DNA of 64,000 bases from Schmidtea nova (taxonomy: Eukaryota): the NCBI GenBank assembly GCA_044892505.1, contig CM097884.1:14012001-14076000 (forward strand). The letters are read 5' to 3'. The stretch's first letter is position 1. Each line of letters starts with the position of its first letter. Below the pieces are notes generated by a model. It was given only the letters and a program-made list of their open reading frames with translations. It searched no databases and had not been told where the DNA came from. Below are positions 12,234 to 36,975 of this stretch, piece after piece. A program made the translations under genes and the position numbers.

Positions 12234-13019
12234 TCATATTAAAAGGTTCTTCTCAAAGTCTATTCAAAGAGGAAATCTTAGAGACATGTAAATAGGCAAA
12301 CGTAATTTTATTGTTGAATAAAAATTATAATAACTTACCTTTTCAATAATTTATAAATATCTAAAAAATATATATTTATAAAATAATTAGATACTTAACT
12401 TAAAATATTAAATAAAATATGTAATCAAATTAAACTATGGTAAAACAGCTTTAAATTATGATTAAAAACATAATTAACAATAATTACTCACCATTTGCCT
12501 GTAATGAGTGTCTGTGACCCTTAACTACAGACTGTTGGTGTATTATGGAAAAAAGGTAACCATAGTATAACGTATTCAATCAGGTTGCCGGATAATGTCG
12601 AATAAACGAGAACCCTAAAAATTTATGAAATTTTAAAATTCTGTATAGAAATTTTAATTATACTGTTGGATCCACCATTTGGTCCACATTTAGCATAAAA
12701 AATAATAATAATAAGAGAGAAAATAAGAATAAATTAAAATAAATATAATTATGAAAATATCAGTAAAAACGAATTAAAATGTAATAAAGAATATTAATTT
12801 AATATAAAAAAATTGGAAGAAAATAAATGTATAATGTAAAAACGTTAAAGAAAATGATATTTAATTATATTTAAATAATAAGAAAGCGAAATAAATAAGT
12901 AAAAAAGAAGAAGAATTAATAAAAATTCGATAAATTAAAACCAGAAAATGCAAATCATATTTGCTAATAAAATTGATTTTATTTTTAATAGAATTGCATT
13001 GATGACCATCAGATTGATG

Positions 13020-13056
13020 CTGATTGGTCAATGAACTGATCTGGTCAGTATAAATA
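13020..13056 (+). promoter_or_regulatory. LTR promoter: inverted CCAAT (CTGATTGGTCAAT) plus TATAAATA
   Basis: The same pair of motifs, in the same order, occurs in the divergent family-2 LTR (39310-39273, minus). Copy in the 3' LTR at 29768-29804. Confidence 0.65.
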
Positions 13057-14289
13057 CTGATCCAGATTCAGATATTTTTAATGTTTTTGTGATTGAAAAA
13101 TTTTTTCTTTGTATTGCTATATACAAACTTTGGAAACTAATAGGTATGAGTATTTTTGTTTTATTGAATTTATAAATTTTATGATTATCTGTCATTGACC
13201 ATTGTAGTTAATTATTAATAAAATATTTTATGATATATGATTTTTAAATTTTTGTCGAGTATAGAATTAAACCCAGCTTCTTCCACTGTGAAATCAGTGG
13301 AAGGAGATGACTATATTTATATATTATATATCTTTTATTAAGCTTCTTCCATCGTGTAATCGGTGGAAGGAGGTAACAGTATCAGTTTATACTAACAACT
13401 AACAAGTATATTTTTTAGAAGTAATTTTTGGGTCGAGCTTCTTCCACTGTGTAATCAGTGGAAGGAGGCGTATATATATTATCTATATACCGTATTTATA
13501 GTATAAAATTACGTATGATTTAAGGGGCTCCGTTCACCGTGCAATCGGGAACATGGAGGCATACTGTGCCGAGTAGAAACGACTGCTCCGTACAGTTAGG
13601 CCGTCCGACCGGTGTAAAGCGCCGTGACGAGGGTAGGAATGTTATTTTTGATTTCTAACCTTATTTTTCACTGGATAGTATAACCAGTTGAAGTTTTATT
13701 TTCTAACCGATTTAGTTTTTCATGAGTGTATAGTTAAATTGAGTTTTGATTTTAGTTGGATACAGATGTAACTGCGATTTGAGTAATCTGATTTTACCTT
13801 GAGATTCACAGAGTGTTAGCGTACATTTTTCGATGGTCACATCTGGGGTTTGTGGGCATAGAGCGGCAGATACACGGTTAAGAATCTGTACAAAATATAA
13901 TTTTAATAACAACATAAAAATCGATAATGCTAACAACGTAGTGATCTACTACGCAAGTAACATAGCAGCAATAGGCTATAGGTTCAAACATTCCACCTAA
14001 ATAATTAAACATAATTGCTTATCCTGAACCCTGTACATAGGGCAGTGGATCTTAGTTTATTTTAATAACTTTCTTATCCTGAATGCTGTATATAGCACAG
14101 GCGTAACTAAATAAAATGCATTATGAAATAAATGTATCTGATCGCTGTATATAGCGACAGTGTTGAAAGCGTAATAGGTACATCATTTTCTTTTCCTAAA
14201 TTAACAATTACCAATTGTCAAAAGTATGAGAATCGTTCGAATCAAGACTACTAATTTCATGTTAATAAACCAATTTCGAATTTTAGAAA

Positions 14290-14880
14290 ATGTCAGCCAA
14301 CACAGCAACTAACCAAGCCGAATTAGACAAAGCATGGAGAATAATCCGCAGCCTCGAAAAGGAAATGCTGCGAAAATCAGAGAAAATAAAAGAAGCCGAT
14401 GGAATAATTACCAACCTAAAGAAAAGCTGGTTCAGTCCAGAACAAATGAAAATGCAAATCACCAAAACTCAACGCTCACAGCGAGCTAACAGCGAACTGC
14501 AAATGGAATTGGACGCAACGAAGATGGAATTAAAGAAATGCCTAAAATCTGTAACGGCATCATATCTAACTCAAGAGCTCAGCCAGCTCATTCGACCAAT
14601 CACTTATCAGCATTGGGCTGACGAAAAGGCAGGATGCTCAAAAGGAACAAGCACAGAGGAACCATCTCAGGTTCAAGCAACGGCGGCCTCCATCACACCA
14701 AAGGACGTAATAATTCCAGAAGTCAAGAAGAAAAAGAAGAGTAAGATGGGCGCACGTCAGCGACGCTGGAAGAAACAAGTTCTTCAGCAATTGGCTCAAC
14801 AATCCAAAGAAATTCCAGAAATTGATTTGAACATGAATTTTGCAATATCAGATGAAGATATTACCAAATACTTTGAATAG
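14290..14880 (+). CDS. LTR-encoded 196-aa coiled-coil protein with basic K/R motif (ORF-B)
   Basis: Intact ORF with TTTTAG|AAAATG immediately upstream; homologous to 36976-37575 and 43738-44199. Confidence 0.8.
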   Translation: MSANTATNQAELDKAWRIIRSLEKEMLRKSEKIKEADGIITNLKKSWFSPEQMKMQITKTQRSQRANSELQMELDATKMELKKCLKSVTASYLTQELSQLIRPITYQHWADEKAGCSKGTSTEEPSQVQATAASITPKDVIIPEVKKKKKSKMGARQRRWKKQVLQQLAQQSKEIPEIDLNMNFAISDEDITKYFE

Positions 14881-15194
14881 GAATTTTGTGATTTGTAAAT
14901 TTTGCTTATTAAATAATTTTTGTTTTGTATTTATCTTATTGTAAAGTATATGAACTAAAGTATTTTATTAAAGGATTTTTAAATTAAATTAAATGTAGAT
15001 TATAAATAAAAGATTGACATAAAGTAATGAACAATAATAGCATTAAAGAAATAACATATCGTAAAAATATTATTTGTTGATATTGTAAAGAAGGGGGCTG
15101 AAAGAAAGTTGAAAGTGGAAATATATTGTAACGAAAGGGGGCGAAAAGAGATAATTGAAATGAAAGATAATGGATGCGGATAGATTAAAATTAA

Positions 15195-15390
15195 AGCGTA
15201 AGTCCTTCTATCGGCAGCGAGACGAACCCGTGAACATAAATGGGGAGTAGTTTTAGCAATAGAGCTCACCTGCCCATCATTGTTCAAACACCTTGCACAT
15301 TTCCAACTCGATTATTACAGGGAAATGATCGAGGGTGCTCGTGTGATATGTAAGCATTTTATGTGAGGTTTTGGATGGAGGAATCCCTAG
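15195..15390 (+). ncRNA. Conserved structured RNA element near the LTR 3' end (copy in 3' LTR at 31943-32138)
   Basis: Alignable to 36668-36858 (-) and 44396-44572 (+) with compensatory base-pair changes (see findings). Confidence 0.6.
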
Positions 15391-15458
15391 AGCGTTTAAG
15401 AATAATTATTAATTTTGTATTTTTGTTTTAACCCAATCCGAAACCAACAACATAAATT

Positions 15459-15476
15459 TGGGGGCTCAGCCGGGAA
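15459..15476 (+). promoter_or_regulatory. Primer binding site, tRNA-Pro type
   Basis: TGGGGGCTCAGCCGGGAA, close to the canonical tRNA-Pro PBS TGGGGGCTCGTCCGGGAT; located 9 nt after the LTR end. Confidence 0.8.
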
Positions 15477-15915: not shown

Positions 15916-16377
15916 ATGAACGACAAATTAAAAGAAATAGAAGAATTCTTAAACACTGAAAACAAAACATACGATGAACTATGCGAGAAAATAAGTCGAA
16001 TAAGAGAATCCGGATTCAAAGAACCCATGACACAAACCGAAGAGACAACAGAGCTGATAAAAATAATGGAAAGAGTTGACAAAATAGATATTACTACTAG
16101 ATATAAATGGTACCAAGCGAGATTGGAAAACGCTGAGTTAAATATAAAATGCAGACAGCTAGAGCAACAATTAACTTCAACATACAACAAGTGGACGATA
16201 CAAGGAACTGAGACAGCTAAGAAATTTAAACTATGTTACATATGTCGAGAAAGGGAGAATAAAATCATGTTTTTACCATGTGGACATTTTCGGTTTTGTG
16301 GAATCTGTGCAGCCAATTGCGACAAATGCCCGATGTGCAATCTCGAAATAGACGAAAGAATTATTGTGTATTTATAA
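15916..16377 (+). CDS. Coiled-coil + C-terminal IAP/MDM2-type C3HC4 RING protein (153 aa)
   Basis: CYICRERENKIMFLPCGHFRFCGICAANCDKCPMCNLEIDERIIVYL at the extreme C-terminus; TTTAG|CAATG upstream. Confidence 0.85.
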   Translation: MNDKLKEIEEFLNTENKTYDELCEKISRIRESGFKEPMTQTEETTELIKIMERVDKIDITTRYKWYQARLENAELNIKCRQLEQQLTSTYNKWTIQGTETAKKFKLCYICRERENKIMFLPCGHFRFCGICAANCDKCPMCNLEIDERIIVYL

Positions 16378-16418: not shown

Positions 16419-16590
16419 GATAATGAGAATTAAGATGACAATTCATAATGAGAATTAATATGAGAATTCATAATGAGAATTGATATGAGAATTCATAATA
16501 GGAATTAATATGAGAAAGGATAATGAGAATTAATATGATACTTGATAATGAGAATTAATAATGAGAATTTAAAATGAGAGTTGATAATGG
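16419..16590 (+). repeat. 12-13-bp minisatellite (ATGAGAATT core)
   Basis: Direct reading. Confidence 0.85.
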
Positions 16591-17029
16591 CAATGACAGA
16601 AATCATAATAACAATTGATATTTATAAATAATTTTTGAGCTGCTCACGAGTAGTCCGTTAAGCACCCATTGGGAGGAACCAACTGATCAACTTACCCGAG
16701 ATGTATAGAAAGGGGCCCATCGCGGATATTGGAAAGCTTTTGTGATGTGACTGATCACCACATCTTGCATTAGTAGACCAATGCGATCTTTTTGTATATT
16801 TTGGTTGGGGTGAAAGGTAGGGACAATCTAATGAGGTTTAAGTGCATGCAGAAAATACAAATAAAAATGAGAGAATAGAACACTGATCAGTGAAAGTCGA
16901 AAGAACATTAAGAAAATAAGTGGAATGAAAGTTAATGTGATAACTCTCATAACAATAGAGATAATTCAGCTGAATGATAACTAGTGAAGTGGATAATTGC
17001 GGTTAACCGGTTAAAGAGATTAGTTAAAT

Positions 17030-17725
17030 ACCTTGTATAAAAAGGTCAAGGGCAAATAAGCCATATTAGTTACTCTGAAAGAAGGGTCAAGGGCAAATAA
17101 GCCATATTAGTTACTCTGAAAGAAGGGTCAAGGGCCAACGAGCCGTATTAGTTAATTACTCTGAAAGAAGGGTCAAGGGCCAACGAGCCGTATTAGTTAA
17201 TTACTCTGAAAGAAGGGTCAAGGGCCAACGAGCCGTATTAGTTAATTACTCTGAAAGAAGGGTCAAGGGCCAACGAGCCGTATTAGTTAATTACTCTGAA
17301 AGAAGGGTCAAGGGCCAACAAGCCGTATTAGTTAATTACTCTGAAAGAAGGGTCAAGGGCCAACGAGCCGTATTAGTTAATTACTCTGAAAGAAGGGTCA
17401 AGGGCCAACGAGCCGTATTAGTTGAATACTCTGAAAGAAGAGTCAAGGGCAAACAAGCCAGATGAGTTAAATACCTTGTACAAAAAGGTCAAGGGCCAAC
17501 GAGCCATATTAGTTGAATACTCTGAAAAAAGAGTCAAGGGCAAACAAGCCAGATGAGTAAATACCTTGTACAAAAAGGTCAAGGGCCAACGAGCCATATT
17601 AGTCAAATACTCTGAAAGAAGAGTCAAGGGCAAACAAGCCATATTAGTTAAATACCTTGTAAAAAAAGGTCAAGAGCAAACAAGTCAGATTATTTAAGAT
17701 TACCCCGAAAGAAGGGTCAAAGGCC
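17030..17725 (+). repeat. 41-46-bp tandem array (~16 units; core unit 45 bp)
   Basis: ACTCTGAAAGAAGGGTCAAGGGCCAACGAGCCGTATTAGTTAATT recurs at 17113, 17158, 17203 and onward. Confidence 0.95.
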
Positions 17726-18584
17726 TAACTAAGCAGGTGATTATTCTCTAAGAAGGTATTTTCCCTAGAGAAGGGCCATGGAGTCAAGCGAATAAATTAA
17801 ATTAGGGCATAGAAGAGCCAAGTGAATAAGTGAATAAATTAGAGAAGAGCCAAGTGAATAAATTAAATTATGGCGTAGAGAGCCAAGGGAATAAATAAGC
17901 AACAGAGATGAAATAAAACCAAGTTGTAATCGTCGACGATGTTAAGAGTAATGAGCACTAGAAATTAAGTAATACGAGTAAAGATGATTAAGTAAACTAG
18001 AGATTCAGTATGCATACGAGTAGAAATAGGAATAAGAGAAATTAGAGTTGACCGGAAAAACCGGTAGAAATAGTGAGAATAATGAATAATGATGAGAAAT
18101 TAGAGATGACTGGAAAATTTGATAGGAATAGTGAGAATAGTGAGTAATGATGATATAATGAATAGTGATAAAATGATAATTGAGTCAGGAGAACTCAAGG
18201 GAATTAAAGCGTTTGAGCGACAAATTAAATTGGGAGACTGAGGGAAAAGTAACGAATTTATTTGATAACGATAGATAATTATTACGACCATATAGATAAT
18301 TGTTACCAGTGAATAGATAATTTAAATAGACTTAAATAAAGGGGAAACCGGGAATGGGGAAACAATGGAAACCCAATAATGAGGAATAAAAGCGCAACGA
18401 TAACAATGATGTATCGTTGAAGTGACTTTTTAATTTAGATATACGGAACAGAACAAGTCAAACAACCAGCCAATCAATCAGAATACGATAACAGAGAAAC
18501 AGAAAAATTGATAAATCAAAGAAAAGTAAACCGAGATCAAGAACAGTTAAAAATCAAGAAGTCAATAATTCACAAAGAAATAAA

Positions 18585-21500
18585 TTGAGATCAAGAGCAG
18601 TTAGTGCTACAATCGAAAAAGTTGATAATTCACAGAGAAATAAATCGAAACAAAGAGCAACCAGTGCTACAAAGAAAACAAATCCTAAAGGAAGTAAATC
18701 AAGAAGAGTAATAGTAGAAAAGTCAAAAGTCGAAAACAGTAAATTTGCTAAAACTAACGAAAGTGAAACAGAAGAAAGTTTAAGTGAAACCTACGATAAG
18801 TATAATAATACGGAAGCATCAGATAACGAGTCAATAAACACAGAAGAAGTAGAAGCAGAAATTGATAATAATTCAAACGAAACGAATAACGAGCATACTA
18901 GTGAAACAAGAGGAAACGAGAGTAAAACGACTCAAGACAGCGGAATTGAAATGAACGAGCATAAAGAAGAAATCAAAGATAAATTTACTGGAGAACCATT
19001 CAATGGAGATGCCAGCAAGTTAGAAACGTTCTTAAAAGAATTTGGTATATTTGTAGAAGTGTGTAAATGGAAACCAGAAACGATAAGAAGCAGAATTCAG
19101 TTATATTTAAAAGACAGTGCGTTAGACTTATATTTAGAAGCTAAAAATTCGGATGATCAACTCGATAGTTGGGAAAAGATAAAGAATTTTTTCCAGCAAA
19201 CGTTTGGAATAAATAAAGTATTAAATGAAGCGTTTACAGAATTTTCAATGAGGAAACAAAAAGTTAATGAATCAAATGCAGTATATGCAAGTGAATTAAA
19301 GAAATTGGCTAAATTGGCATTTAATCAAAATAGTCCAATGAGTCCAGAATTAATGGCAGCAATTTTTGTGGGGGGATTGAGAAGACCCGATATAAGAGCA
19401 CAAGTTGGATGCCAAGGTTGTAAAACAATAGATGAAGCGTTGGAAATCGCTAACAGATTTGAATTACATATGATCGGAAGTGAAGGAAGAATTTACCTAG
19501 CAATGGATACGACACAAAATGAACAAGCAATGAAGATAAACAATCATATTCCGAATTCACAACAATTAAACCGACCACCACCTCAAAGGAGAAATGAGGG
19601 AAACAAAGTACAAAATTTCGGAAACCAAAATAATTATAATACGCAAGGACAGACAAAGCAATGTCAAACCTGTGGAAAGTTAGGACATTGGCAACAAGAA
19701 TGTTTCGCGAATTTAAATTGTAAAAAGTGTGGAAGAAAAGGACATTCGGAAAGTAGATGTTACCTGAATTCATGTTATAACTGTGGACAACCAGGTCATA
19801 TGGCAAAGAATTGCCAACAACAAAACAACCAACAAAGGAATTGGTCGAACAACGGAAATCGACAAAGTTATGCGAATCAACAGAATAACGGAAACCGTCA
19901 GAATTATGAAAATCAACAGAGTAATTATAACCAGAACAAAAGTACCACCAAAGAGATACATTTATTACAAGAAGTTCAGAGATTGACAGAGTTAATAAAC
20001 AATACACCGAGAGGAAATCAACAAACGAATCAACAACAAATGAATATGATGAGAAAAGTAGAAAGTGAAAATGAACGACTAAACCGAGAAAGTCAAGCAC
20101 GACATGCTCAAGAATGGGCAAGAATACAAAGAGAAGACGAACAGAAACGACAAGAAAGAGAACGACAACCATTGAGAATTAATATGATGAGAGCAGCGAA
20201 TCAAACAAGAGATAACAAAGAAGATATTGAACCAGAAACAAACCAGATAAACCCAAATCCGGAAGATGAAGAAAACCAAAAAGAAAAAGTACAAGAAAAC
20301 GAAGAAGATATTGAACAAAAAAGGATGTTGGTAGTCATGCCAAACGATCATGTATTTCGATTTGAATATGATGAAAAAGAGGAAGTAGAAGTATTAATTA
20401 ATAAAGTAAACAAGACGATTCCGGGAACGACGAAACTACCCCGAGAAGCATTCTTACAGACAGAAGACGAAGCAGCAATAAAATTAAAACCAACTGACAT
20501 ATGGAAAGATTTAGGAGTACCAATGAATAAAATGAAAGTCACAGTTATCCAAGAAATAGAAGAAAATAACGATGAAGAGAAATCAAAACCAGTAACAAAA
20601 GTCAAAAGTAGAGCATTGAAGATATTTGAAGAGAAAATCAAACAGAGAAAAGCAATGGAGATAGAAAAACGAAGAGGCCAAATAGAAGAATCAGGAAACA
20701 ATGACAAAAAGGAAGAAATACCACCAAACAGTATACCAGAAAACTATGAACTTAGACGATGTAGAAGTATGGATCCGCAAGGAGATTCACTCACAATTGC
20801 AGTCATGTCATCAAATACAGGACCAGTATTAACTACAACCATAGAAATAAATGGAAAAGAAATAGAAGCGATGATAGATACAGGAGCAAACATTTCGGCG
20901 ATAGATGTTAAATGGATACCGCAAGAACAGAGACAAGAAATTGAAAGAACAAATGTTCATGTAATAGCATGTAGTAAAGAGATTGTTGAAGTTGCAGGAA
21001 GATGGTGGGTAAAAATACGACACCAAAATATAGAAATCGAAACGTATGTAGCAGTAATACCAGCTTTAAGCGTACCATGTATAATCGGAACAGATTTAAT
21101 GCCAACACTATTCAAAGAAATAATCATCGATCTTGGAACAATGAGATTAAAGGACAGAACAGGGAAAATATGTGCCATGAAAACAAAAGTAATAAACTCG
21201 AAACAAATAATGATACCGGAAGAGAGAATCATGACGAGATCACAAACCATCAGAATAAATATGCTCAGAGCGGAAGAAATTAACACAACTAGTCAAGTAG
21301 ACAGTGAGAAAATCGATGTTGACAAAGAAATCGTACGGAAAGCCAAAGAAATAAACGAAAGATGGGAAATCAGACAAGAAAAAGACGTATTATGGGATAT
21401 ACGACAAATAATTAGTGATTACGCACGAGGATGCCCAACCAAACCAATCATAATAGAATTATTAAAGAAAATACCAGAGATACTCGTATTACAAGATACA

Positions 21501-24500
21501 GGAGGTGCAACTGCACTGCACAATGCCATAAGTTGGGGTAAAACAGAAAAGGTAAAAGAATTCTTGAAAATAGCAAAAGAAACGAATCAAAATCTAGACA
21601 TTGTAAATCGAGAATTAGAAACGCCAATGATGACAGCAACACTAAGCTTAGCAGATAAAGAAATAGTAGATATGCTGATTAACGCAGAATTCAACTGGAC
21701 AGCTCGGGATAGAAGAGGAAACACAGTTTTAAATCATGCAATAATGAGTGAAAATCAAATGATACTAAAACATATAACAACCAACCTCACATGGGAAATC
21801 GATGAATTAATCAAAGGAGAAATTATGAAGGAAGCGATTCGGAAAGGAAACACTAAAACAATATGGAAACTAATACAATGGAAATGGCCGGATAATAAAA
21901 CATGGGTATTAGATATAAACAAAGAATTTAGCGAAGGACAGAATGCACTATTGAGATACTTATTAGAGTTTACGTGCGATCAGAGAACGATGTTAGCACT
22001 AATAAATAGAGGAAAAATAAATATTAGTAAAAACGAAGAGGAATATAAACTAGAAGTTGAAAAGAAAGCTTTATTCAGGAAAATTTGGGTATGGTGTCAA
22101 AAACAAATACGCAAAGACATAAGCTACAAAAATCTAAATGATTTCCAAGAAAAGTATAAGATAATAATAAAGGAATACAAGAAGCTAGTGGAGATATTAA
22201 ACGATCCAGAAAAATTTAATCAAGCAATAAATCAGAAAGAAGAAGAAAGTAAAAGGATACTCACACCATTGTTCAACGCGAAGATAGATTATCAAGAAAG
22301 ATTGGATGCAATACACAAAAAAGCAAAGGAACTATTACCAGAATTCAAAGATACTAAATACGCCTTGGAAATACTAGGCGCGATAGTAGAAAAAGTACAC
22401 GCGTACGCGAAAGGAATGTATAATGGAGATGATATAATAACTATAAAAAGAGAAATGCCAGTTGCGTTTTTATTAACAAAAGAAAGAATAATACCGATTC
22501 ATAGAGCATTGAGAGCAGGAAAAGACGGTAAAGTAATCGAAATCGCAAGATTAATGCATCAATGTGGATGTGATATGAATATGATAGATGAAAAAGGAGA
22601 CACCCTTATGGTATACGCAGCAAGAGCAAAAACAAAAATCAAAGTATTAGAAGAGTTATATAAAGCAGGCGCAGGATTAATCGGAAAAACTGTCAAAGAC
22701 AACTCAATATTAGACGTGACATTATTAGGTCCAAATTGGGAAATGTTGAATTTCATTAAAACGATAACAAACCAAGAAGAGATAGATTATTTAACAGAAA
22801 CCGTAAAAAGACCAAGTGTATTGACAATGATGCAAAACATCAAATTGACAGAAGAAGTATTAAACTGGAAAATACCAAATACAAATAAACCAGCATTTAA
22901 AGTTAACAAGTTTATGGAGAATAATCGAAATTGGTGTATCCAAAGCGCACTAATAACTTATATATGGCCTGAAATTGTAGAAATTTTCATGAGAAGAGAA
23001 GACCTGAGATTTACAAACAAGCCTAAAGAAACGGAAAAGGTAGTCAAATGGAAAGAACTGATGAGAACACACCTTCAAAGTTGGATAAAAGCCAAGAAAG
23101 AAATTATACAGTATCAGTTAGACAACAAAAAGATACCCGAAGATATAGAATTCCAAGAATTTGAAGCAAGTAACTTAACCTCATTATATTATGCAAAACT
23201 AATAGAAACAAGTAATGTCGAGGACGACATTTTTAACGAGCCAGGGAGAGATAATAATACTGACAAAGACGATGACGATGAAGAAAACAATGACGACGAG
23301 AGAAATAAAGACGATGATGATGAAAATAATCACGGAAACCCAGATAACCACGAGCAAACCAACAAAGAAGACGAGAATCAAGAGAGAAATACAAAGAACC
23401 AAGAATCCAAAGAACAAAGAGAAGACAACCCTAAAAACAATCATGAAAACAAAGGAACAAGTTACAGAAGGAATCCATTATTCAGACCAGAAGTATTAAT
23501 GTTCGCAATAATCATAACACTTATGGGACAATGTGAAGCAACGAAACAAGAGATATCAGTAGAAATGGGAGTACCAATACAAAAAGCATCAACACAGATA
23601 ATGAATTCAAAGGATATTGAACAAGTATGTTGGGTAAAAGAGAATGAAATTCTCGGAGATAACAACCTATTACGATGTATAATACCAAACCCCGAGCGAA
23701 AAACTATAATAATAGACGAAATGGACATGGAAACATGGTACAGAATATGTACAATCAGAAAACCTAAAGACGAAAAATCACACAAGACAGTTACATGCCA
23801 AGTATACAAGACACCCAAAGTTCGATACGAGTTCGCCAATGGAATAGACCTTCCAGGACCATTTTATTTTAAAATAACAAGAGAACCAGCATCAAGAAAA
23901 GTCTTACAACAACCAAGAACCAAGATAACAACACCAAGTATAAGGAATACAACGGATAAACCAGAAACAAACAGAAGAAATACAACGGATAAACCAGAAC
24001 CAAAAAGACGAACGAAACAAACCACAAGAGTAATCTATAATTCCAAGTTGTTATGTATAGCACTTATTATGACAATACTGAAGCGATTAGAAGAAGGAAT
24101 AGAAATGGATACGATGACACTAATAGACATGGAAGAGACACAAATAACAAATCAAAAATGTTGGTTTAGAAATGATGAAAAATTAGAATTAAAGGAATCA
24201 AGAGAAATTCGAAAATTAGAAGCGGGTAAAACGAACAAAGTAATCAAGATAATAAAGATAAAAACAGACAGAATTCATAAACTATGTTTATTGGAAAAAG
24301 AGAGAAACAAGAAAGGAATAACCAATTGTAAAACATTCCAAGCAGGGAAAATAATAACGTTCGCAAGAAAAATGGGGAAAAGAAACAAACAAAATTTCCA
24401 GAAATTAACCATAACGTTAGAAATAACGGGAATAGAACAAAACGTAAACGGAGTATGCTGGAGAAAATACGAGAAAGAAGCAAATAAACACAAATCATCA

Positions 24501-25463
24501 CAATGTCAAACAATCAGAGGAACAACTGCAGTACAAATAAAAAGCTTAGAAAGAAATCAAACGTATGAAATATGCCTAGTAAAAGAAAATGATCAAATAA
24601 CGAAAGAAGATTTAGAATGCAGAATATACAGAGCACCGAACAGAATAAAAACCATTAAAGCAATACGAAAGAATAAAAGACAACAAAAACCGAAGCATAC
24701 CACTACCGAAAGTCAAACAGAACCAGAGAGGAAAACCTCAGCAACACTTATACTTTGGAAACTAGATAACAAAACAGTAGAAATATGTTGGACAATGATC
24801 AAGAAATATGAAGAAAGACAACCACAACAATGCGAAAAGATGAACAAAGAAGAGGAGATCAGAATTCAGAACCTACAATTGGACAAACAATACGAAATAT
24901 GCGCAATAGAAAAGGCAGATAAATTTGGAAACCAGCAAGAAAAATGTGGAAACTACTATACACCGACAAATACAACGATCAAAGGAAGAATCAAGAAACT
25001 AACTTTCGGAGAATTGAATCAAACAACGAAACAAATGGAAAACGAGGAAACAATAATAGATTCTTATGCACAATGGAAACCAGAAAAAGTAATCCAGGAA
25101 GTCAAAAGGAAACAACAAGAACGACAACAATTGGAACTCAAATTGAAAGGACAATATGGACCAATGATCAATCAAAGCAAATTCACCCAAATCAATGTTA
25201 ACAAGCAAGGAAGAGAATTAATCGGAGTAGGAATACTGGCAGTATGCGTACCAGTAATAATAATACTATCAATAATATGGCTATGGGACATAATAAAAAA
25301 GAAACCAACCAGACAATGGCCAGATATAAAGATTATGAATTGTAAAATCAAGATACCAGAAGAAGTAAAGAAAGAATTCCAAAGAAGAACCAAAGGCAAA
25401 GAATTTTGGAAGCAGATCGAAGACGAGGAGCGACACGATGAAAAGGCAGTGATGATAGTATAG
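18585..25463 (+). CDS. Gag(3xCCHC)-Ubl-like-aspartic protease-ankyrin-FN3-like-TM polyprotein (start uncertain; first in-frame ATG at 18951)
   Basis: Capsid-like FNGDASKLETFLKEF; CCHC x3 (19662-19814); MIDTGA...IIGTD protease (~20822-21150); ankyrin-like repeats (~21490-21780 and ~22490-22765); signal-like segment (~23490-23540); Cys-containing FN3-like repeats; TM segment (~25218-25286). Confidence 0.88.
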   Translation: MRSRAVSATIEKVDNSQRNKSKQRATSATKKTNPKGSKSRRVIVEKSKVENSKFAKTNESETEESLSETYDKYNNTEASDNESINTEEVEAEIDNNSNETNNEHTSETRGNESKTTQDSGIEMNEHKEEIKDKFTGEPFNGDASKLETFLKEFGIFVEVCKWKPETIRSRIQLYLKDSALDLYLEAKNSDDQLDSWEKIKNFFQQTFGINKVLNEAFTEFSMRKQKVNESNAVYASELKKLAKLAFNQNSPMSPELMAAIFVGGLRRPDIRAQVGCQGCKTIDEALEIANRFELHMIGSEGRIYLAMDTTQNEQAMKINNHIPNSQQLNRPPPQRRNEGNKVQNFGNQNNYNTQGQTKQCQTCGKLGHWQQECFANLNCKKCGRKGHSESRCYLNSCYNCGQPGHMAKNCQQQNNQQRNWSNNGNRQSYANQQNNGNRQNYENQQSNYNQNKSTTKEIHLLQEVQRLTELINNTPRGNQQTNQQQMNMMRKVESENERLNRESQARHAQEWARIQREDEQKRQERERQPLRINMMRAANQTRDNKEDIEPETNQINPNPEDEENQKEKVQENEEDIEQKRMLVVMPNDHVFRFEYDEKEEVEVLINKVNKTIPGTTKLPREAFLQTEDEAAIKLKPTDIWKDLGVPMNKMKVTVIQEIEENNDEEKSKPVTKVKSRALKIFEEKIKQRKAMEIEKRRGQIEESGNNDKKEEIPPNSIPENYELRRCRSMDPQGDSLTIAVMSSNTGPVLTTTIEINGKEIEAMIDTGANISAIDVKWIPQEQRQEIERTNVHVIACSKEIVEVAGRWWVKIRHQNIEIETYVAVIPALSVPCIIGTDLMPTLFKEIIIDLGTMRLKDRTGKICAMKTKVINSKQIMIPEERIMTRSQTIRINMLRAEEINTTSQVDSEKIDVDKEIVRKAKEINERWEIRQEKDVLWDIRQIISDYARGCPTKPIIIELLKKIPEILVLQDTGGATALHNAISWGKTEKVKEFLKIAKETNQNLDIVNRELETPMMTATLSLADKEIVDMLINAEFNWTARDRRGNTVLNHAIMSENQMILKHITTNLTWEIDELIKGEIMKEAIRKGNTKTIWKLIQWKWPDNKTWVLDINKEFSEGQNALLRYLLEFTCDQRTMLALINRGKINISKNEEEYKLEVEKKALFRKIWVWCQKQIRKDISYKNLNDFQEKYKIIIKEYKKLVEILNDPEKFNQAINQKEEESKRILTPLFNAKIDYQERLDAIHKKAKELLPEFKDTKYALEILGAIVEKVHAYAKGMYNGDDIITIKREMPVAFLLTKERIIPIHRALRAGKDGKVIEIARLMHQCGCDMNMIDEKGDTLMVYAARAKTKIKVLEELYKAGAGLIGKTVKDNSILDVTLLGPNWEMLNFIKTITNQEEIDYLTETVKRPSVLTMMQNIKLTEEVLNWKIPNTNKPAFKVNKFMENNRNWCIQSALITYIWPEIVEIFMRREDLRFTNKPKETEKVVKWKELMRTHLQSWIKAKKEIIQYQLDNKKIPEDIEFQEFEASNLTSLYYAKLIETSNVEDDIFNEPGRDNNTDKDDDDEENNDDERNKDDDDENNHGNPDNHEQTNKEDENQERNTKNQESKEQREDNPKNNHENKGTSYRRNPLFRPEVLMFAIIITLMGQCEATKQEISVEMGVPIQKASTQIMNSKDIEQVCWVKENEILGDNNLLRCIIPNPERKTIIIDEMDMETWYRICTIRKPKDEKSHKTVTCQVYKTPKVRYEFANGIDLPGPFYFKITREPASRKVLQQPRTKITTPSIRNTTDKPETNRRNTTDKPEPKRRTKQTTRVIYNSKLLCIALIMTILKRLEEGIEMDTMTLIDMEETQITNQKCWFRNDEKLELKESREIRKLEAGKTNKVIKIIKIKTDRIHKLCLLEKERNKKGITNCKTFQAGKIITFARKMGKRNKQNFQKLTITLEITGIEQNVNGVCWRKYEKEANKHKSSQCQTIRGTTAVQIKSLERNQTYEICLVKENDQITKEDLECRIYRAPNRIKTIKAIRKNKRQQKPKHTTTESQTEPERKTSATLILWKLDNKTVEICWTMIKKYEERQPQQCEKMNKEEEIRIQNLQLDKQYEICAIEKADKFGNQQEKCGNYYTPTNTTIKGRIKKLTFGELNQTTKQMENEETIIDSYAQWKPEKVIQEVKRKQQERQQLELKLKGQYGPMINQSKFTQINVNKQGRELIGVGILAVCVPVIIILSIIWLWDIIKKKPTRQWPDIKIMNCKIKIPEEVKKEFQRRTKGKEFWKQIEDEERHDEKAVMIV

Positions 25464-25585
25464 AGGGTGGGATATGACTGTAAATAATATTGTAAATTAC
25501 AAAGCATTACCGTATATAGTATGGGTATTAGTATTATAGAGTATATAAAAAGAGAAAAGAGAAAAATAATAATGTATTTTAGAAA

Positions 25586-25921
25586 ATGAATGTACAAGGA
25601 GAAACAACCGAAATGACTATGACTATGCGATGGAAAGCACAATGTGAAACGTTAGTTCGATCAATTAATGCACTACAGAATCAATTGGTAGAGAAGCAAA
25701 ATATATTAGCAGATTGTTACAACAATATCTTTGAGCAGTTACATAAAATAGAAGAGCAACAGAAAATAATAACAGAACTAACCAGAGAGAATCAAAGATT
25801 GAGACAAACGATGGAAATAAATCAACTAACAAGAAGAGATGAATCAGAAGGTCAATGGCTAGATTGGGTAATAAATGGATTAGAGAATGATATAGAACCA
25901 GATTCAACGAGCGAACCATAG
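25586..25921 (+). CDS. 111-aa coiled-coil protein of unknown function
   Basis: Intact ORF, heptad-like pattern, TTTTAG|AAAATG upstream. Confidence 0.6.
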   Translation: MNVQGETTEMTMTMRWKAQCETLVRSINALQNQLVEKQNILADCYNNIFEQLHKIEEQQKIITELTRENQRLRQTMEINQLTRRDESEGQWLDWVINGLENDIEPDSTSEP

Positions 25922-26018
25922 TCAAATTGTAGCGGAAAATTGTATATATGTAAAAATAACAACTCTAGAAAAATCAAAAACAAAGAACAAATCAATGTAT
26001 GTATATATTATTGTAGAA

Positions 26019-27374
26019 ATGGATAAAGAGGAACGAGCAGTCGAGATTTTGAGAGCAGCAAACAGAAATTGGAACAAGAGATTTGTATGTGGATATTGTA
26101 ATAATTTATTACGGAAACCAAAGCAAACCGCCTGTGGATGTAGATTATGCACTAGATGTGTACAAATGTTAGAGTTAAAAGGAATAACAGAATGTCCAGA
26201 ATGTAAAGAAGGACAAATAGTGTTAGACGAAACGAGACCAGATAGAGCAACTCAGAGAGAAATCATGAGCATATTAATTGAATGTATAAATCCACCATGC
26301 ATATGGCAAGGACAAATCAGTGAAATTGAAAATCATATAGAAAATTGTGAAGAAAAGAGAAGCGAATGTGAAAAGTGTAAAGAAACGATAATTTTAAAAG
26401 ACAAAGAGAAACACAGAGATGAATGCAAAGAGGAAGAAATCGCATGTGAATATTGCGAAATTCGAGAAACAAGGAGAAAAATTGAAGAGGAGCACATCAA
26501 TATAAAAGAAGAGAAAATATGTGAACAGTATGTAGGAGTGTGCCCAAACAAATGTGAAATTACCGAAGAAGTGAAATTACGAGAACATTGGGAAAAGTGT
26601 ACAGAAATACCAAGAGAATGTCCTTACAACAGATATGGATGCAAGGAAAAGAAGTCTCAACAAAATATGAAACAACATTTAGAAACAGAAGCAATCAATC
26701 ATATTGAAATGACAGACAGAACAATTCAGAAATTGGAAAAAGAAGTGGAATCTCATAAAATAATGATGAACCTATTATTAGAAACGAGAGAACAGTTTGA
26801 ATTAACCCGAGGAAGGATGGAAAAGAAAATAATAGCCATCAAGGAATTAGCAAAAGGAATGAAAGTGCAATATAACAAGTTAATACAAGAAATTGATGAG
26901 AAAAAAGATTTACCAATAGCACCTTATGTGTGGAAAATAACGGATTTCCGAAATAAATTGGAAGATGCACGAAGCTTCAAGAAAACTGCGGTAATAAGCC
27001 CACCATTTTACTTATGGAAAAACGGGGCTAAAGTGAGATTGAAAGTATATCCAAACGGAGATGGGACAAGTATGGGAAAACACCTATCAATATTTTTTGC
27101 GTTTTGCAAAGGAGAATATGACGATTTAATCGATTGGCCGATAGGAGTAGGAGTAATGATAAAAATCAGGGGTTTAAACGAAACCATAGAAAAGAGATTC
27201 ACGACAGACAAAGGAGCAGTTACGAGTAACAGACCAACAGAAGAATGTGGATTAGCAAGTGGAGAACCACACTTTGTATTACAAAGCAAGATATGGGGAT
27301 TATTGTATGAGGACACCTTATACATAGAAATGGAAAGGAACGAAAAGGCAGATAGAAAAGGATGGTTGGCGTAG
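26019..27374 (+). CDS. Intronless TRAF-family protein (RING, zinc fingers, coiled coil, MATH/TRAF-C)
   Basis: RING CGYC...CGCRLCTRC...CPEC; TRAF zinc finger PDRATQREIMSILIEC..PCIWQGQISEIENHIENC; TRAF-C YVWKITDF...SPPFY...VYPNGDG..GKHLSIFF...GEYDDLIDWP. Start placed at 26019 (TGTAG|AAATG) rather than the track's 25995. Confidence 0.92.
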   Translation: MDKEERAVEILRAANRNWNKRFVCGYCNNLLRKPKQTACGCRLCTRCVQMLELKGITECPECKEGQIVLDETRPDRATQREIMSILIECINPPCIWQGQISEIENHIENCEEKRSECEKCKETIILKDKEKHRDECKEEEIACEYCEIRETRRKIEEEHINIKEEKICEQYVGVCPNKCEITEEVKLREHWEKCTEIPRECPYNRYGCKEKKSQQNMKQHLETEAINHIEMTDRTIQKLEKEVESHKIMMNLLLETREQFELTRGRMEKKIIAIKELAKGMKVQYNKLIQEIDEKKDLPIAPYVWKITDFRNKLEDARSFKKTAVISPPFYLWKNGAKVRLKVYPNGDGTSMGKHLSIFFAFCKGEYDDLIDWPIGVGVMIKIRGLNETIEKRFTTDKGAVTSNRPTEECGLASGEPHFVLQSKIWGLLYEDTLYIEMERNEKADRKGWLA

Positions 27375-27478
27375 CAAGAGAAAATGATCGTGTAAATAAA
27401 CTGTACAAAACAATATAAAATGATAAATAAACAAAATAATAAAAGTAGCCTGATTGAAAATATTTGTAATTATAGAAA

Positions 27479-28582
27479 ATGGGAAACGTCGAAATCAGTT
27501 TACAAGCAGTAACCGCACATCAAGATGAAGTTATTTGTGAGCATTTAGAACAAATTGAAAGTTGGATCCACGCATATTACCACAAACAAAAAGAAGTAGA
27601 AAGACAAGCCGAACAAATAACAGAAGCCAAAAGATTAAAGCAATTAAGTCAAGATAAAATAGACGAATTATATGAATTATTGGAGAAACAAAAAGAATAT
27701 TATAAAAAGATGATGAAAGAACGACGAGAAGAAAGAGAGCGAGAACGAACAGAAATGGAACGAAAAATGTACTCGATTACCGAGCAAGCAAGATATTGGA
27801 AAAAAGAAGCGAAAGAATCTTATACGAAAGCAAGAGAAATAATCGAAAGAACGGCGTACAGCGATGATTGGAAGTTATTTGAAGAAATCGATAAATTAAA
27901 AGAGGAATTAGAACAGAAAACCTATCAGGAAATATCGAGCAAGAAATGGAATATAAAGAGACAACAATTCATCAGAGAGCAAGCAGGAAAAATTAAACAA
28001 CTTCTGCACCAGATTGAAAGATCGGAAAGAGAATTATATTTCAGTAAACAACAATCCGATGCAAACCTCAGAGCAGGGATGCAGAAAGAGGAAGATATGA
28101 AGCGCGATATTAATGGTTATCAAGGAGTAATCACTCAAAAGAAGATAGAGTTAAAGAAAACTAAAGAAAGATTAGAAGAAACAAAACAAAGCTATGAAGA
28201 AAATTTATTAAAATTAGAAGAAGCAAAACAAAGCTATGAGGAAAATTTATTAAATCTAACCAAAGAAAATGAAGAGTTGAAACAAAAACTGATACAAAAA
28301 TTAACACCACCAAAAGAGACAGATATCACCAAAGCAGTAATAAAAATGATGGAAGAGGAAGAGAAAAACAATAAAATAACAGAATTAGAAAAACGGATCG
28401 AAGCGTTAACAGAACAATCAAATTATTTAGAATATCTGTTAGACGAAGAAATCCAATTATCACACTTCTATCGAGATGAAGTAACAATGTGGAGAAACAC
28501 GATAGTATGGTTACCACCCCCTACAAACCAAGTGGAACCTCAAGATGAAGGTTTTCACGAACCCAATGAGTCGTTAGTATAA
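27479..28582 (+). CDS. 367-aa long coiled-coil protein
   Basis: Intact E/K-rich ORF with internal repeat KQSYEENLL x2; TTATAG|AAAATG upstream. Confidence 0.7.
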   Translation: MGNVEISLQAVTAHQDEVICEHLEQIESWIHAYYHKQKEVERQAEQITEAKRLKQLSQDKIDELYELLEKQKEYYKKMMKERREERERERTEMERKMYSITEQARYWKKEAKESYTKAREIIERTAYSDDWKLFEEIDKLKEELEQKTYQEISSKKWNIKRQQFIREQAGKIKQLLHQIERSERELYFSKQQSDANLRAGMQKEEDMKRDINGYQGVITQKKIELKKTKERLEETKQSYEENLLKLEEAKQSYEENLLNLTKENEELKQKLIQKLTPPKETDITKAVIKMMEEEEKNNKITELEKRIEALTEQSNYLEYLLDEEIQLSHFYRDEVTMWRNTIVWLPPPTNQVEPQDEGFHEPNESLV

Positions 28583-28657
28583 AAGAAGTGCGAAAATTAG
28601 TTGTAAATATCTGTAACATAACAATGTCAAACTGTATTGACAAATTTGTAAAGTGAA

Positions 28658-29221
28658 ATGAAGAAGCTCGCAATACTGATAATCCTAAACGTAATCGAGA
28701 TCACCCAACAAAGAGAAGACCGTCCGATATTAAAAGAAAACCTACAAGTCTTACCCGAAAAAATCTATAAAGAAATAGATAATCTATTAAAAGAAGCAAT
28801 CAAAGAAATATCTCAAATTCAATTGTCAACAGCACCTAACCCAGTATCAACGCAACAAACCCTGTGCAAAATCAATAACAAATTAGAGAAGATTCGAAAA
28901 ACCTTAAAAGAAAGTAAAGAAACTATAAAGAATTTACATCGAGCAGAAATTCAATACCAAGAGAGATGGATCGTTGCGATTATAATCGTATTAACAATTA
29001 GTACAACAACCTGCGCAATTACCATTCTCATCGCAGTATATAGAATAAAGATCCTAAAACAAAAACAATCGATCATCAATCAAACAACAGCATACGATGA
29101 CAATGCCCGAAGACAAATGAGAAATCAGTTCAACAGAATACGAACCCAATACGAGTTACCAGCAATTCCACAGAACCAGTCCAATCCAGTGCGAGTTATG
29201 AACTATTTGTATAAACAATAA
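28658..29221 (+). CDS. 187-aa predicted type-I membrane protein
   Basis: Signal-like MKKLAILIILNVIE, coiled coil, TM WIVAIIIVLTISTTTCAITILIAVY, then basic stop-transfer RIKILK. Confidence 0.7.
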   Translation: MKKLAILIILNVIEITQQREDRPILKENLQVLPEKIYKEIDNLLKEAIKEISQIQLSTAPNPVSTQQTLCKINNKLEKIRKTLKESKETIKNLHRAEIQYQERWIVAIIIVLTISTTTCAITILIAVYRIKILKQKQSIINQTTAYDDNARRQMRNQFNRIRTQYELPAIPQNQSNPVRVMNYLYKQ

Positions 29222-29380
29222 AGACGTGACAAAATATTTGATTAACAATTTTCTGAATTTTCTATATTTTCTTCGTGATTACGTATAGACTAAACTCACC
29301 TTATGTGAATCTTTATGCTTATGTATCAAACGTAAAATTTTTTATGAATGTTGAGTATAAGTAATAGTGTATAATTAATT

Positions 29381-29411
29381 GCGGGACGCAATTTTAGGGG
29401 TCCCCGAGTGA
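29381..29411 (+). promoter_or_regulatory. Atypical PPT region before the 3' LTR
   Basis: GCGGGACGCAATTTTAGGGGTCCCCGAGTGA directly abuts TGTTGG; only a short purine run. Confidence 0.45.
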
Positions 29412-32197
29412 TGTTGGATCCACCATTTGGTCCACATTTAGCATAAAAAATAATAATAATAAGAGAGAAAATAAGAATAAATTAAAATAAATATAATTAT
29501 GAAAATATCAGTAAAAACGAATTAAAATGTAATAAAGAATATTAATTTAATATAAAAAAATTGGAAGAAAATAAATGTATAATGTAAAAACGTTAAAGAA
29601 AATGATATTTAATTATATTTAAATAATAAGAAAGCGAAATAAATAAGTAAAAAAGAAGAAGAATTAATAAAAATTCGATAAATTAAAACCAGAAAATGCA
29701 AATCATATTTGCTAATAAAATTGATTTTATTTTTAATAGAATTGCATTGATGACCATCAGATTGATGCTGATTGGTCAATGAACTGATCTGGTCAGTATA
29801 AATACTGATCCAGATTCAGATATTTTTAATGTTTTTGTGATTGAAAAATTTTTTCTTTGTATTGCTATATACAAACTTTGGAAACTAATAGGTATGAGTA
29901 TTTTTGTTTTATTGAATTTATAAATTTTATGATTATCTGTCATTGACCATTGTAGTTAATTATTAATAAAATATTTTATGATATATGATTTTTAAATTTT
30001 TGTCGAGTATAGAATTAAACCCAGCTTCTTCCACTGTGAAATCAGTGGAAGGAGATGACTATATTTATATATTATATATCTTTTATTAAGCTTCTTCCAT
30101 CGTGTAATCGGTGGAAGGAGGTAACAGTATCAGTTTATACTAACAACTAACAAGTATATTTTTTAGAAGTAATTTTTGGGTCGAGCTTCTTCCACTGTGT
30201 AATCAGTGGAAGGAGGCGTATATATATTATCTATATACCGTATTTATAGTATAAAATTACGTATGATTTAAGGGGCTCCGTTCACCGTGCAATCGGGAAC
30301 ATGGAGGCATACTGTGCCGAGTAGAAACGACTGCTCCGTACAGTTAGGCCGTCCGACCGGTGTAAAGCGCCGTGACGAGGGTAGGAATGTTATTTTTGAT
30401 TTCTAACCTTATTTTTCACTGGATAGTATAACCAGTTGAAGTTTTATTTTCTAACCGATTTAGTTTTTCATGAGTGTATAGTTAAATTGAGTTTTGATTT
30501 TAGTTGGATACAGATGTAACTGCGATTTGAGTAATCTGATTTTACCTTGAGATTCACAGAGTGTTAGCGTACATTTTTCGATGGTCACATCTGGGGTTTG
30601 TGGGCATAGAGCGGCAGATACACGGTTAAGAATCTGTACAAAATATAATTTTAATAACAACATAAAAATCGATAATGCTAACAACGTAGTGATCTACTAC
30701 GCAAGTAACATAGCAGCAATAGGCTATAGGTTCAAACATTCCACCTAAATAATTAAACATAATTGCTTATCCTGAACCCTGTACATAGGGCAGTGGATCT
30801 TAGTTTATTTTAATAACTTTCTTATCCTGAATGCTGTATATAGCACAGGCGTAACTAAATAAAATGCATTATGAAATAAATGTATCTGATCGCTGTATAT
30901 AGCGACAGTGTTGAAAGCGTAATAGGTACATCATTTTCTTTTCCTAAATTAACAATTACCAATTGTCAAAAGTATGAGAATCGTTCGAATCAAGACTACT
31001 AATTTCATGTTAATAAACCAATTTCGAATTTTAGAAAATGTCAGCCAACACAGCAACTAACCAAGCCGAATTAGACAAAGCATGGAGAATAATCCGCAGC
31101 CTCGAAAAGGAAATGCTGCGAAAATCAGAGAAAATAAAAGAAGCCGATGGAATAATTACCAACCTAAAGAAAAGCTGGTTCAGTCCAGAACAAATGAAAA
31201 TGCAAATCACCAAAACTCAACGCTCACAGCGAGCTAACAGCGAACTGCAAATGGAATTGGACGCAACGAAGATGGAATTAAAGAAATGCCTAAAATCTGT
31301 AACGGCATCATATCTAACTCAAGAGCTCAGCCAGCTCATTCGACCAATCACTTATCAGCATTGGGCTGACGAAAAGGCAGGATGCTCAAAAGGAACAAGC
31401 ACAGAGGAACCATCTCAGGTTCAAGCAACGGCGGCCTCCATCACACCAAAGGACGTAATAATTCCAGAAGTCAAGAAGAAAAAGAAGAGTAAGATGGGCG
31501 CACGTCAGCGACGCTGGAAGAAACAAGTTCTTCAGCAATTGGCTCAACAATCCAAAGAAATTCCAGAAATTGATTTGAACATGAATTTTGCAATATCAGA
31601 TGAAGATATTACCAAATACTTTGAATAGGAATTTTGTGATTTGTAAATTTTGCTTATTAAATAATTTTTGTTTTGTATTTATCTTATTGTAAAGTATATG
31701 AACTAAAGTATTTTATTAAAGGATTTTTAAATTAAATTAAATGTAGATTATAAATAAAAGATTGACATAAAGTAATGAACAATAATAGCATTAAAGAAAT
31801 AACATATCGTAAAAATATTATTTGTTGATATTGTAAAGAAGGGGGCTGAAAGAAAGTTGAAAGTGGAAATATATTGTAACGAAAGGGGGCGAAAAGAGAT
31901 AATTGAAATGAAAGATAATGGATGCGGATAGATTAAAATTAAAGCGTAAGTCCTTCTATCGGCAGCGAGACGAACCCGTGAACATAAATGGGGAGTAGTT
32001 TTAGCAATAGAGCTCACCTGCCCATCATTGTTCAAACACCTTGCACATTTCCAACTCGATTATTACAGGGAAATGATCGAGGGTGCTCGTGTGATATGTA
32101 AGCATTTTATGTGAGGTTTTGGATGGAGGAATCCCTAGAGCGTTTAAGAATAATTATTAATTTTGTATTTTTGTTTTAACCCAATCCGAAACCAACA
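29412..32197 (+). repeat. 3' LTR (family 1)
   Basis: No differences from the 5' LTR seen by eye; all ORF-track translations in the two LTRs are identical. Confidence 0.95.
31038..31628 (+). CDS. ORF-B copy in the 3' LTR
   Basis: Identical translation to 14290-14880. Confidence 0.8.
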   Translation: MSANTATNQAELDKAWRIIRSLEKEMLRKSEKIKEADGIITNLKKSWFSPEQMKMQITKTQRSQRANSELQMELDATKMELKKCLKSVTASYLTQELSQLIRPITYQHWADEKAGCSKGTSTEEPSQVQATAASITPKDVIIPEVKKKKKSKMGARQRRWKKQVLQQLAQQSKEIPEIDLNMNFAISDEDITKYFE

Positions 32198-36667: not shown

Positions 36668-36858
36668 CTAGGGATTCCCCATCCATGATCATGCATAAAT
36701 ATTACAAATTCTCACTCGAGCGCCCTTGATTATTTCCCTTGATAACCAAGTTGGTGATGCGCAAGGTGGTTAAACAATGATGGGCAGGTGAGCTCTATCG
36801 CTAGAACTACTCCCCATTTATGTTTACGGGTTCACGCTGCCGTAGAAGGACTTACGCT
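36668..36858 (-). ncRNA. Family-2 copy of the conserved LTR structured RNA
   Basis: Aligns with 15195-15390, with covarying stems. Confidence 0.6.
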
Positions 36859-36975
36859 ATTTACTTTATTATGTGAACATATGATTTAAATTTAATTACT
36901 ATTAATTACGTAACCGAAGAAAAATACCTAGAAGAACAAAAAAAACAACACAAAAATCTGATAATATTTAATGCT

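Follow-up and report, generated by a model that had tools for sequence, protein, structure and literature searches.

A complete TRAF gene retained in three families of Burro-like LTR retroelements of a planarian

Introduction

The window that we analyzed, a stretch of 64,000 nucleotides of the Schmidtea nova genome, contains an open reading frame for a TRAF protein inside an LTR retroelement. The locus raises the question of why a retroelement should carry a TRAF gene, that is, where the gene comes from, whether it is retained by selection and what it could do for the element or for its host.

Burro/GYPSM1 are giant Ty3/Gypsy elements of planarians, and the available part of their description already lists MATH_TRAF_C as cargo (PMC6431247), so TRAF/MATH cargo in Burro elements as such is already published. 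An expansion of the host TRAF genes of planarians has been reported as well, in the accessible sections of these papers with no tie to elements (Swapna 2018, PMC6109357; Ziman 2020, PMC7586133; PMC8807557); the string "transpos" occurs 0 times in the accessible text of PMC7586133. PMC8532177 and PMC11410931 mention Burro in their accessible parts, and TRAF does not occur there.

Structure of the element

The LTR element spans positions 12664-32197 (19.5 kb), begins with TG, ends with CA and is flanked by a 4-bp target duplication (ATAC). The identical LTRs and the duplication confirm that the TRAF frame is carried inside an LTR element, as an earlier note on this DNA had claimed (Table 1). The element belongs to a family which we call A; the related families B, C and D are described below.

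Table 1. Features of the TRAF-bearing element (positions in the window; protein domains in TRAF residues)
Feature	Position	Strand	Remarks
5' LTR, 2786 bp	12664..15449	+	100% identical to 3' LTR; TG...CA
TATA-like box in 5' LTR	13049	+	
Splice-donor-like AG/GT in 5' LTR	13144	+	putative
196-aa ORF inside LTR	14290..14880, repeated 31038-31628	+	no family above cut-off
Primer-binding-site-like sequence	15459..15476	+	9 nt after LTR
153-aa ORF, C-terminal C3HC4 RING	15916..16377	+	Pfam zf-C3HC4_3 E=1e-11
25-bp tandem array, element 5' region	16386-16585		
45-bp tandem array, 5' untranslated region	17017..17725	+	
2170-aa polyprotein	18951..25463	+	Gag with zinc knuckles, aspartic protease, ankyrin repeats, membrane-protein-like tail
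env-segment junction, in-frame	20732..20758	+	sister copies hold about 5.4-kb segment including fusion-glycoprotein (env) gene
pol-segment junction, in-frame	21201..21217	+	sister copies hold 3021-bp RT-RNase H-integrase segment
111-aa coiled-coil ORF	25586..25921	+	conserved in families B and C
TRAF ORF, 451 aa	ATG 26019 to stop 27374	+	one open frame, no intron
RING, C4C4-type	TRAF residues 24-62		eight cysteines, aligned to TRAF2/5/6 RINGs
Coiled coil (TRAF-N)	TRAF residues 225-295		continuous 70-residue helix in AlphaFold model, before MATH
MATH	TRAF residues about 303-440		Pfam and PDB/fold matches
367-aa coiled-coil-rich ORF	27479..28582	+	no Pfam family
187-aa ORF	28658..29221	+	hydrophobic N-terminus, one predicted transmembrane stretch
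3' LTR	29412..32197	+	

The primer-binding-site-like sequence, which we take to be of the tRNA-Pro type, is identical in 6/6 other copies. The RING of the 153-aa ORF is presumably IAP-like; a pattern scan of this ORF found no BIR signature. Tandem arrays are also present at the equivalent place in the 5' region of families C and D. Two further small frames have counterparts in the sister families, namely the 196-aa ORF of the LTR (41% identical in family B, 35% in family C) and the 367-aa ORF downstream of TRAF (68% and 53%, respectively).

In the window copy RT, RNase H, integrase and env are all missing by Pfam, and the two places where sister copies hold these genes both fall at a short common sequence encoding hydrophobic-Pro-acidic residues. 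Judging from this sequence the module borders may be processing sites of the polyprotein. Its tail consists of a signal-like stretch, cysteine-paired beta-sandwich repeats and a transmembrane helix, and the region 23538-25463 resembles a type I membrane protein with FN3/Ig-like repeats. The structural model of the tail, which has a pLDDT of 45, gave FN3/Ig-like matches with Z up to 7.7, and the family-D homologue shows a weak fn3 match; the modeled repeats are likely FN3-like, which we treat as a lead only. Family B carries an extra partial repeat of the tail.

Elsewhere in the window there is an inverted fragment of the LTR 3' end (36668-36868, 81% identical), likely from a related family, and a Penelope-like element (2817-8200) with RT and GIY-YIG nuclease on 5751-7589, a partial inverted copy of which has arms that are 98-99% complementary. 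A long single frame at 46908-48944 matches Adaptin_N (E=2e-108) and is likely an exon of a host adaptor-complex subunit.

The TRAF protein

Upstream of the ATG at 26019 there is a second in-frame ATG at a distance of 24 nt (25995), with a splice-acceptor-like YAG between both; the TRAF of the sister family begins at the equivalent of the ATG at 26019. Pfam recognizes MATH_2 (E=2.4e-21, 76.8 bits with a cut-off of 32), TRAF-mep_MATH (5.9e-18) and zf-TRAF (6e-08, 33.7 bits with a cut-off of 27). For the RING there was no Pfam call at E<=0.05; residues 19-146 match the solved N-terminal domains of TRAF5, TRAF6 and TRAF2 with E-values of 8.9e-14 to 1e-10. An AlphaFold model built on an alignment of 39 sequences reached a mean pLDDT of 90, and its fold matches are the TRAF domains of TRAF1/2/3/5 and the RING region of TRAF6. 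The features of the TRAF family, MATH/TRAF-C, coiled coil, TRAF-type zinc fingers and a RING with eight zinc ligands, were all found, so that the complete intronless TRAF gene first read from the bare DNA is recovered, its RING by way of the structures. The assignment of the TRAF-C part to the TRAF2/3/5 type holds too, as the MATH part has its top scores on solved TRAF2/3/5 structures (E about 3e-21).

The earlier note had also pointed to CGC in the RING where cellular TRAFs usually have CGH. The alignment bears this out with respect to the vertebrate TRAFs, ligand 4 being C instead of H. As a departure from cellular TRAFs in general the claim falls, because host TRAFs of flatworms have CGC as well: we found it in 7/7 aligned non-element TRAF RINGs of the same genome and in both named Dendrocoelum proteins. 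Among 155 database homologues CGC occurs in 22, the two Dendrocoelum proteins included, and H in 88, and 45 show no pattern. We therefore rejected CGC as an element-specific change; on these alignments it is to be regarded as a trait of the flatworm lineage.

For the receptor-binding groove we took the residue roles in TRAF2 (hot spots 1-3) from the available part of PMC6125299. Hot spot 3 is retained, the positions of R393/Y395/D399/F410/F447 of TRAF2 being K/Y/D/F/F. The serine triad reads A-V-T, F456 is changed to S and C469 to E in 66/66 copies, and E at the C469 position is confined to families A, B and C (0/34 other aligned rows). The PxQ/ExE-binding groove of TRAF2/3/5 formed by hot spots 1-3 is therefore not conserved as a whole, and from the altered residues a binding preference unlike that of TRAF2/3/5 is likely. 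Since the host TRAFs of the same genome likewise depart from the vertebrate groove, the alteration is only partly element-specific.

TRAF-bearing families in the genome

Searching the genome with TRAF yielded 3324 candidates of which 94 were scored, so that all counts are lower bounds. Among these 94 at least 84 matches are 80-100% identical to the window TRAF (family A) and at least 10 are 71-73% identical (family B). Every family-A copy that was fetched lies in element sequence (68/68). A second search with the MATH profile (150 scored of 2419 candidates; counted by eye, again lower bounds) revealed family C, a dispersed 476-codon frame accounting for about 62 of the 150 matches, whose TRAF is 47-49% identical to that of family A and whose element build is the same at 24/24 fetched places. 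In families A, B and C the gene order around TRAF is the same. In one family-C copy (L159:8221-9669) TRAF and the end of the following ORF have become fused by a deletion.

Family D (L153-L155), of which one place was fetched, has a MATH domain inside a polyprotein of 4706 codons, and no full TRAF was seen downstream of this polyprotein; its RT is 92% identical to that of family A. Sister copies of family A contain RT, RNase H and integrase as well as a fusion glycoprotein between gag and protease (Monjiviricetes_fusion, E=8e-68), a domain also present in families B, C and D.

The matches of families A, B and C thus support the proposal that retrotransposon carriage amplifies TRAF copies. The opposite possibility raised at the time, a one-off capture by a single copy, fails, as all 68 fetched family-A copies sit in elements and two further families have the same gene.

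Origin of the element TRAF

In a tree of MATH domains (66 rows) the seven element rows group with three unplaced database proteins in a single clade (96/93), and the 22 host (non-element) rows, which represent the top of the ranked list, all fall outside it. The full-length tree comprises 37 rows, two rows without MATH being left out; it is midpoint-rooted and several rows have unusual composition. Its five element rows again form a clade (100/100), which is nested in a 100/98 clade together with host TRAFs and Dendrocoelum TRAF-2/-4, apart from the vertebrate TRAFs. The element TRAF does not group with vertebrate TRAF1/2, these being the only vertebrate rows labelled by name, and its nearest named homologues are TRAFs of Dendrocoelum lacteum. 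The top identity to a host TRAF is 32% (10 host TRAFs compared). Because the element clade excludes the host rows and the identity to the host TRAFs compared does not exceed 32%, an ancient capture of the gene out of the TRAF radiation of flatworms is likely, and the host tandem cluster appears as a separate expansion.

This host expansion is substantial: about 63 of the 150 scored MATH matches belong to host TRAF tandem arrays on distal C2. A large cluster lies at 405-455 Mb of C2 (L111-L140), and its loci L135-L137 show a weak env-like tblastn match. At 6/19 host tandem loci the RING and MATH parts are in separate frames. The earlier suggestion that part of the lineage-specific TRAF expansions might be element-borne is hence supported in one respect only: element copies inflate the TRAF counts, but a real host tandem expansion exists outside the element clade, and these comparisons gave no evidence that elements seeded the host family.

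Selection on the TRAF gene

Between families the dN/dS of TRAF is 0.13 (A-B) and 0.18 (A-C), with dS near saturation; these between-family values are unaffected by the score-ranked sampling. By part the values are 0.15 and 0.14 for RING and zinc fingers and 0.18 and 0.21 for MATH. TRAF is 72% identical between families A and B and 47-49% between A and C, compared with 97% and 94% for RT; its rate of divergence is about that of the other accessory ORFs and far above that of pol. Within family A we used 66 of 69 sequences tried, three being left out for gaps or ends and one duplicate locus being removed. Over all variants pN/pS is 0.18; singletons have 0.39, and variants present in at least five copies 0.15. 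Ranking of the sample by protein score biases these values downward. Stop codons occur in 5/66 copies and every one is private to its copy. The gene is under purifying selection, which answers the doubt raised in the earlier note whether this TRAF shows any selection.

With these data it is extremely improbable that the gene stems from a host mRNA captured recently and carried along by the element without any function. The lack of an intron in the coding region would fit such an event, but several host TRAFs are single-frame as well, no host gene more than 32% identical was seen among the 10 compared, and in three families the frame has been kept with dN/dS below 0.2 while synonymous sites approached saturation.

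TRAF could also act as a decoy that enters host TRAF trimers or occupies their partners and blocks signaling with no need for RING catalysis. An intact coiled coil and MATH fold, a groove in which hot spot 2 and some of hot spot 1 are lost, and the MATH-only form in family D agree with this, but RING and zinc fingers are as constrained as MATH and the eight RING cysteines are kept in 64/66 family-A copies, and we consider a decoy unlikely.

Finally the gene might be kept mainly for the benefit of the host, with element TRAFs working in its immune or regeneration repertoire. There is a precedent in Burro1, whose B-IAP protects stem cells from apoptosis (summarized in the accessible part of PMC13465017), and the high copy number is compatible with such a mutualist. 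All element-clade TRAFs examined in context, however, sit in elements with young LTRs, no domesticated member of the clade was found among the 22 non-element rows at the top of the ranked list, and selection is visible in variants common to several copies, which points to selection during copying. A benefit to the host is therefore quite improbable as the main reason for retention.

Putative expression signals

A splice-acceptor-like YAG precedes the accessory ATGs by 1-7 nt in 16/18 cases over the three families (A 5/6, B 5/6, C 6/6), compared with 14-22% before all ATGs; the test was made after the pattern had been seen, and the three families are related. The motif is TAG or CAG and its distance varies. 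In the window it stands 2 nt before the TRAF ATG, and it was present before the TRAF ATG in 59/59 copies read. A donor-like AG/GT is found about 95 nt 3' of the TATA-like box in the LTR of the window copy, in 3/8 other family-A LTRs (strict pattern), in 3/3 of family C and in 0/3 of family B. This arrangement of sites suggests that the accessory ORFs are made from spliced subgenomic mRNAs. Trans-splicing is present in planarians and would be an alternative to cis-splicing from an LTR leader.

Divided architecture of family A

We collected 69 family-A copies including that of the window and could class 55 of them, 14 having other deletions or insertions. The commonest form has the env border without pol (38/55), and 33 of these 38 retain most of the fusion domain. 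Neither module is present in 9/55, pol without env in 6/55 and both modules in 2/55, and all four architectures keep TRAF. Pol was lost at one main junction (43 copies) or at another 18 nt away (6 copies), env at no fewer than three types of junction, and the length changes preserve the frame. By exact matching over the whole genome, the main junction of pol loss occurs 48 times and the pol border 12 times, the env border occurs 54 times, and two of the types of env loss account for 16 matches; pairing of the places gives at least five candidate copies with both borders. As copies with both modules exist, we make no claim of obligate complementation. Nor do we claim a shortage of such copies (p=0.003 in the 55 classed, p=0.06 genome-wide), the copies being non-independent.

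The deleted forms are young, their LTR pairs being 99.9-100% identical in 7/7 copies from three deleted forms (one pair partly in view). Variants shared among copies give a pN/pS of 0.02 for pol and of 0.08 for env, the latter in pol-less copies; for every form the values lie at 0.00-0.20 in the regions of protease, ankyrin repeats and tail. On the TRAF tree the architectures are scattered (8 changes versus 7.5 after shuffling), identical TRAF DNA occurs across different architectures, linkage declines within 200 nt, and the four-gamete rate is 0.79 at more than 1.5 kb. The forms thus constitute one recombining population with about 3% divergence. From these mosaic sequences it is likely that different forms are co-packaged and that templates are switched. 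Because the forms recombine, the selection seen in deleted forms may come from complete copies. Although RT, integrase and env are missing from the window copy, its two LTRs are identical; a recent insertion with the help of proteins provided in trans is therefore likely, and the copy would have been moved by sister copies which still carry the env and pol genes.

Splicing as the source of the env and pol deletions was rejected, since the borders share a retained short microhomology and no GT-AG pair fits. For pol we also rejected recurrent excision from one master, as 43 copies share a junction with linked differences of its own: the 50 nt before the pol-loss junction differ by 9.6% from pol-bearing copies compared with 2.7% among pol-bearing copies, and pairs of copies identical over TRAF differ near this junction. 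The split build is not a general trait of these elements, as 17/20 family-C copies keep the env end and pol; four deletions in family C have four different junctions.

It is conceivable, yet in our estimation doubtful, that family A as a whole is a divided, recombining endogenous retrovirus in which the env-only genomes, the commonest form, and the pol-only genomes supply each other with the missing proteins, all forms having a set of spliced accessory genes like that of complex retroviruses, which includes a rewired TRAF steering host death or immune signaling.

Proposed role of the TRAF gene

The TRAF gene, its place in three families, the purifying selection, the clade of its own, the groove changes and the four architectures are established by observation, and we read them as follows. 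TRAF would be a long-kept, selected accessory gene of an env-bearing Burro-like Ty3/Gypsy element, likely expressed from a spliced subgenomic RNA and likely acting as a ubiquitin-ligase adaptor of altered specificity that dampens stress or cell-death signaling in cells in which the element is copied. We give this reading a probability of roughly 0.55. In mechanistic terms a flatworm TRAF would have been captured by the element long ago, and a short LTR leader, or a trans-spliced leader, would be joined to the acceptor directly before its ATG. The protein is predicted to form trimers and to work as an E3 adaptor, and it may play a pro-survival part alongside the IAP-like RING ORF. By analogy with the B-IAP of Burro1 it could thereby damp death or stress signaling to the benefit of the element. 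Knockdown of a host TRAF affects survival according to the available part of PMC8807557. A pair of the TRAF2-cIAP kind is unsupported, as neither Pfam nor the pattern scan found a BIR domain in the element families.

Alternatively, TRAF might serve the cycle of the element itself and ubiquitinate or sort Gag, the FN3-like protein or the 187-aa membrane protein in assembly or release, leaving host signaling untouched. In favor of this, no architecture has dispensed with TRAF or with the ankyrin, membrane-protein and coiled-coil ORFs, all of which are in frame and under purifying selection, and the rewired groove with its family-specific E would suit an internal partner. But no canonical TRAF-binding motif was found in the six element proteins or tails scanned, and the family-D element has MATH alone inside its polyprotein, which makes the RING dispensable in a close relative. 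A role in the element's own cycle is thus possible but clearly less probable than the dampening of host signaling.

A full TRAF kept by a retroelement is a candidate modulator of host signaling comparable to the accessory genes of complex retroviruses, and it is directly testable beside the reported B-IAP. In counts of planarian "TRAF genes", in trees and in RNAi screens, host genes may be lumped together with element copies numbering in the hundreds; both sets are now separable by clade and context. Family A, a recombining population whose copies share in-frame losses of env and pol, offers a natural system for studying cooperation versus parasitism of defective genomes. As a hypothesis only, element RNAs that feed the piRNA pathway could explain why host traf, ankyrin and E3-ligase mRNAs are targeted by PIWI, traf, ankyrin and E3 mRNAs being among the SMEDWI-3 targets in the available part of Kim 2019 (PMC6824462).

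Comparison with known systems

The literature searched contains no description of a TRAF accessory ORF of full length, nor of Burro families split for env and pol; either may be covered by Grohme 2018, Jurka 2007 or Lee 2026 (Dev Cell) with their supplements. This analysis adds the YAG before the accessory start codons, the altered receptor groove and the env/pol-split family A.

As far as the available text of PMC6431247 goes, our elements share with Burro/GYPSM1 the giant ORF, Gag, zinc knuckles, a mononegavirus-like fusion glycoprotein between gag and protease, RT-RNase H-integrase followed by ankyrin repeats, and both MATH/TRAF and RING cargo. LTRs and target duplication are present in the window; RT-RNase H-integrase is found in sister copies only, and env, in frame between gag and protease, likewise occurs in the sisters and is missing from the window copy. 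The size is also similar, a copy with both segments having about 28 kb and about 4970 aa by summed lengths, compared with about 30 kb and an ORF1 of nearly 5000 aa. Family D has the MATH-inside-polyprotein build described for Burro1/GYPSM1 in the accessible text. There the MATH of Burro1 sits inside ORF1 and that of a Dugesia tigrina element in an upstream accessory ORF (PMC6431247, in part), whereas our TRAF is a whole RING-zinc finger-coiled coil-MATH protein in a separate ORF downstream of the polyprotein. Pfam searches and a scan for the BIR pattern detected no BIR or BCL2-like domain in the families studied here, a candidate difference from Burro. Family A consists for the most part of forms without env or without pol, undescribed in the available part of PMC6431247.

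With the vertebrate TRAF2/3/5 the element TRAF shares domain order, fold and hot spot 3 of the groove, but it is only 24-28% identical, has a C4C4-type RING and is changed in the serine triad, F456 and C469. Planarian host TRAFs belong to the same wider clade and have the same CGC RING; they differ in lying outside elements and in falling into other clades, and many of them form tandem arrays in which the coding parts are split.

The divided family A has its closest counterparts in RLG_Wilma/Sabrina/WHAM of wheat (PMC9744471) and in the C and D types of ERVK[2-1-LTR] of cattle (PMC10924933), where, according to the accessible parts of both sources, deleted forms outnumber complete ones, are mobilized in trans and may retain Gag-protease. 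In contrast to these wheat and cattle partners, family A loses the env and pol segments separately and in frame from one polyprotein, and all four combinations exist.
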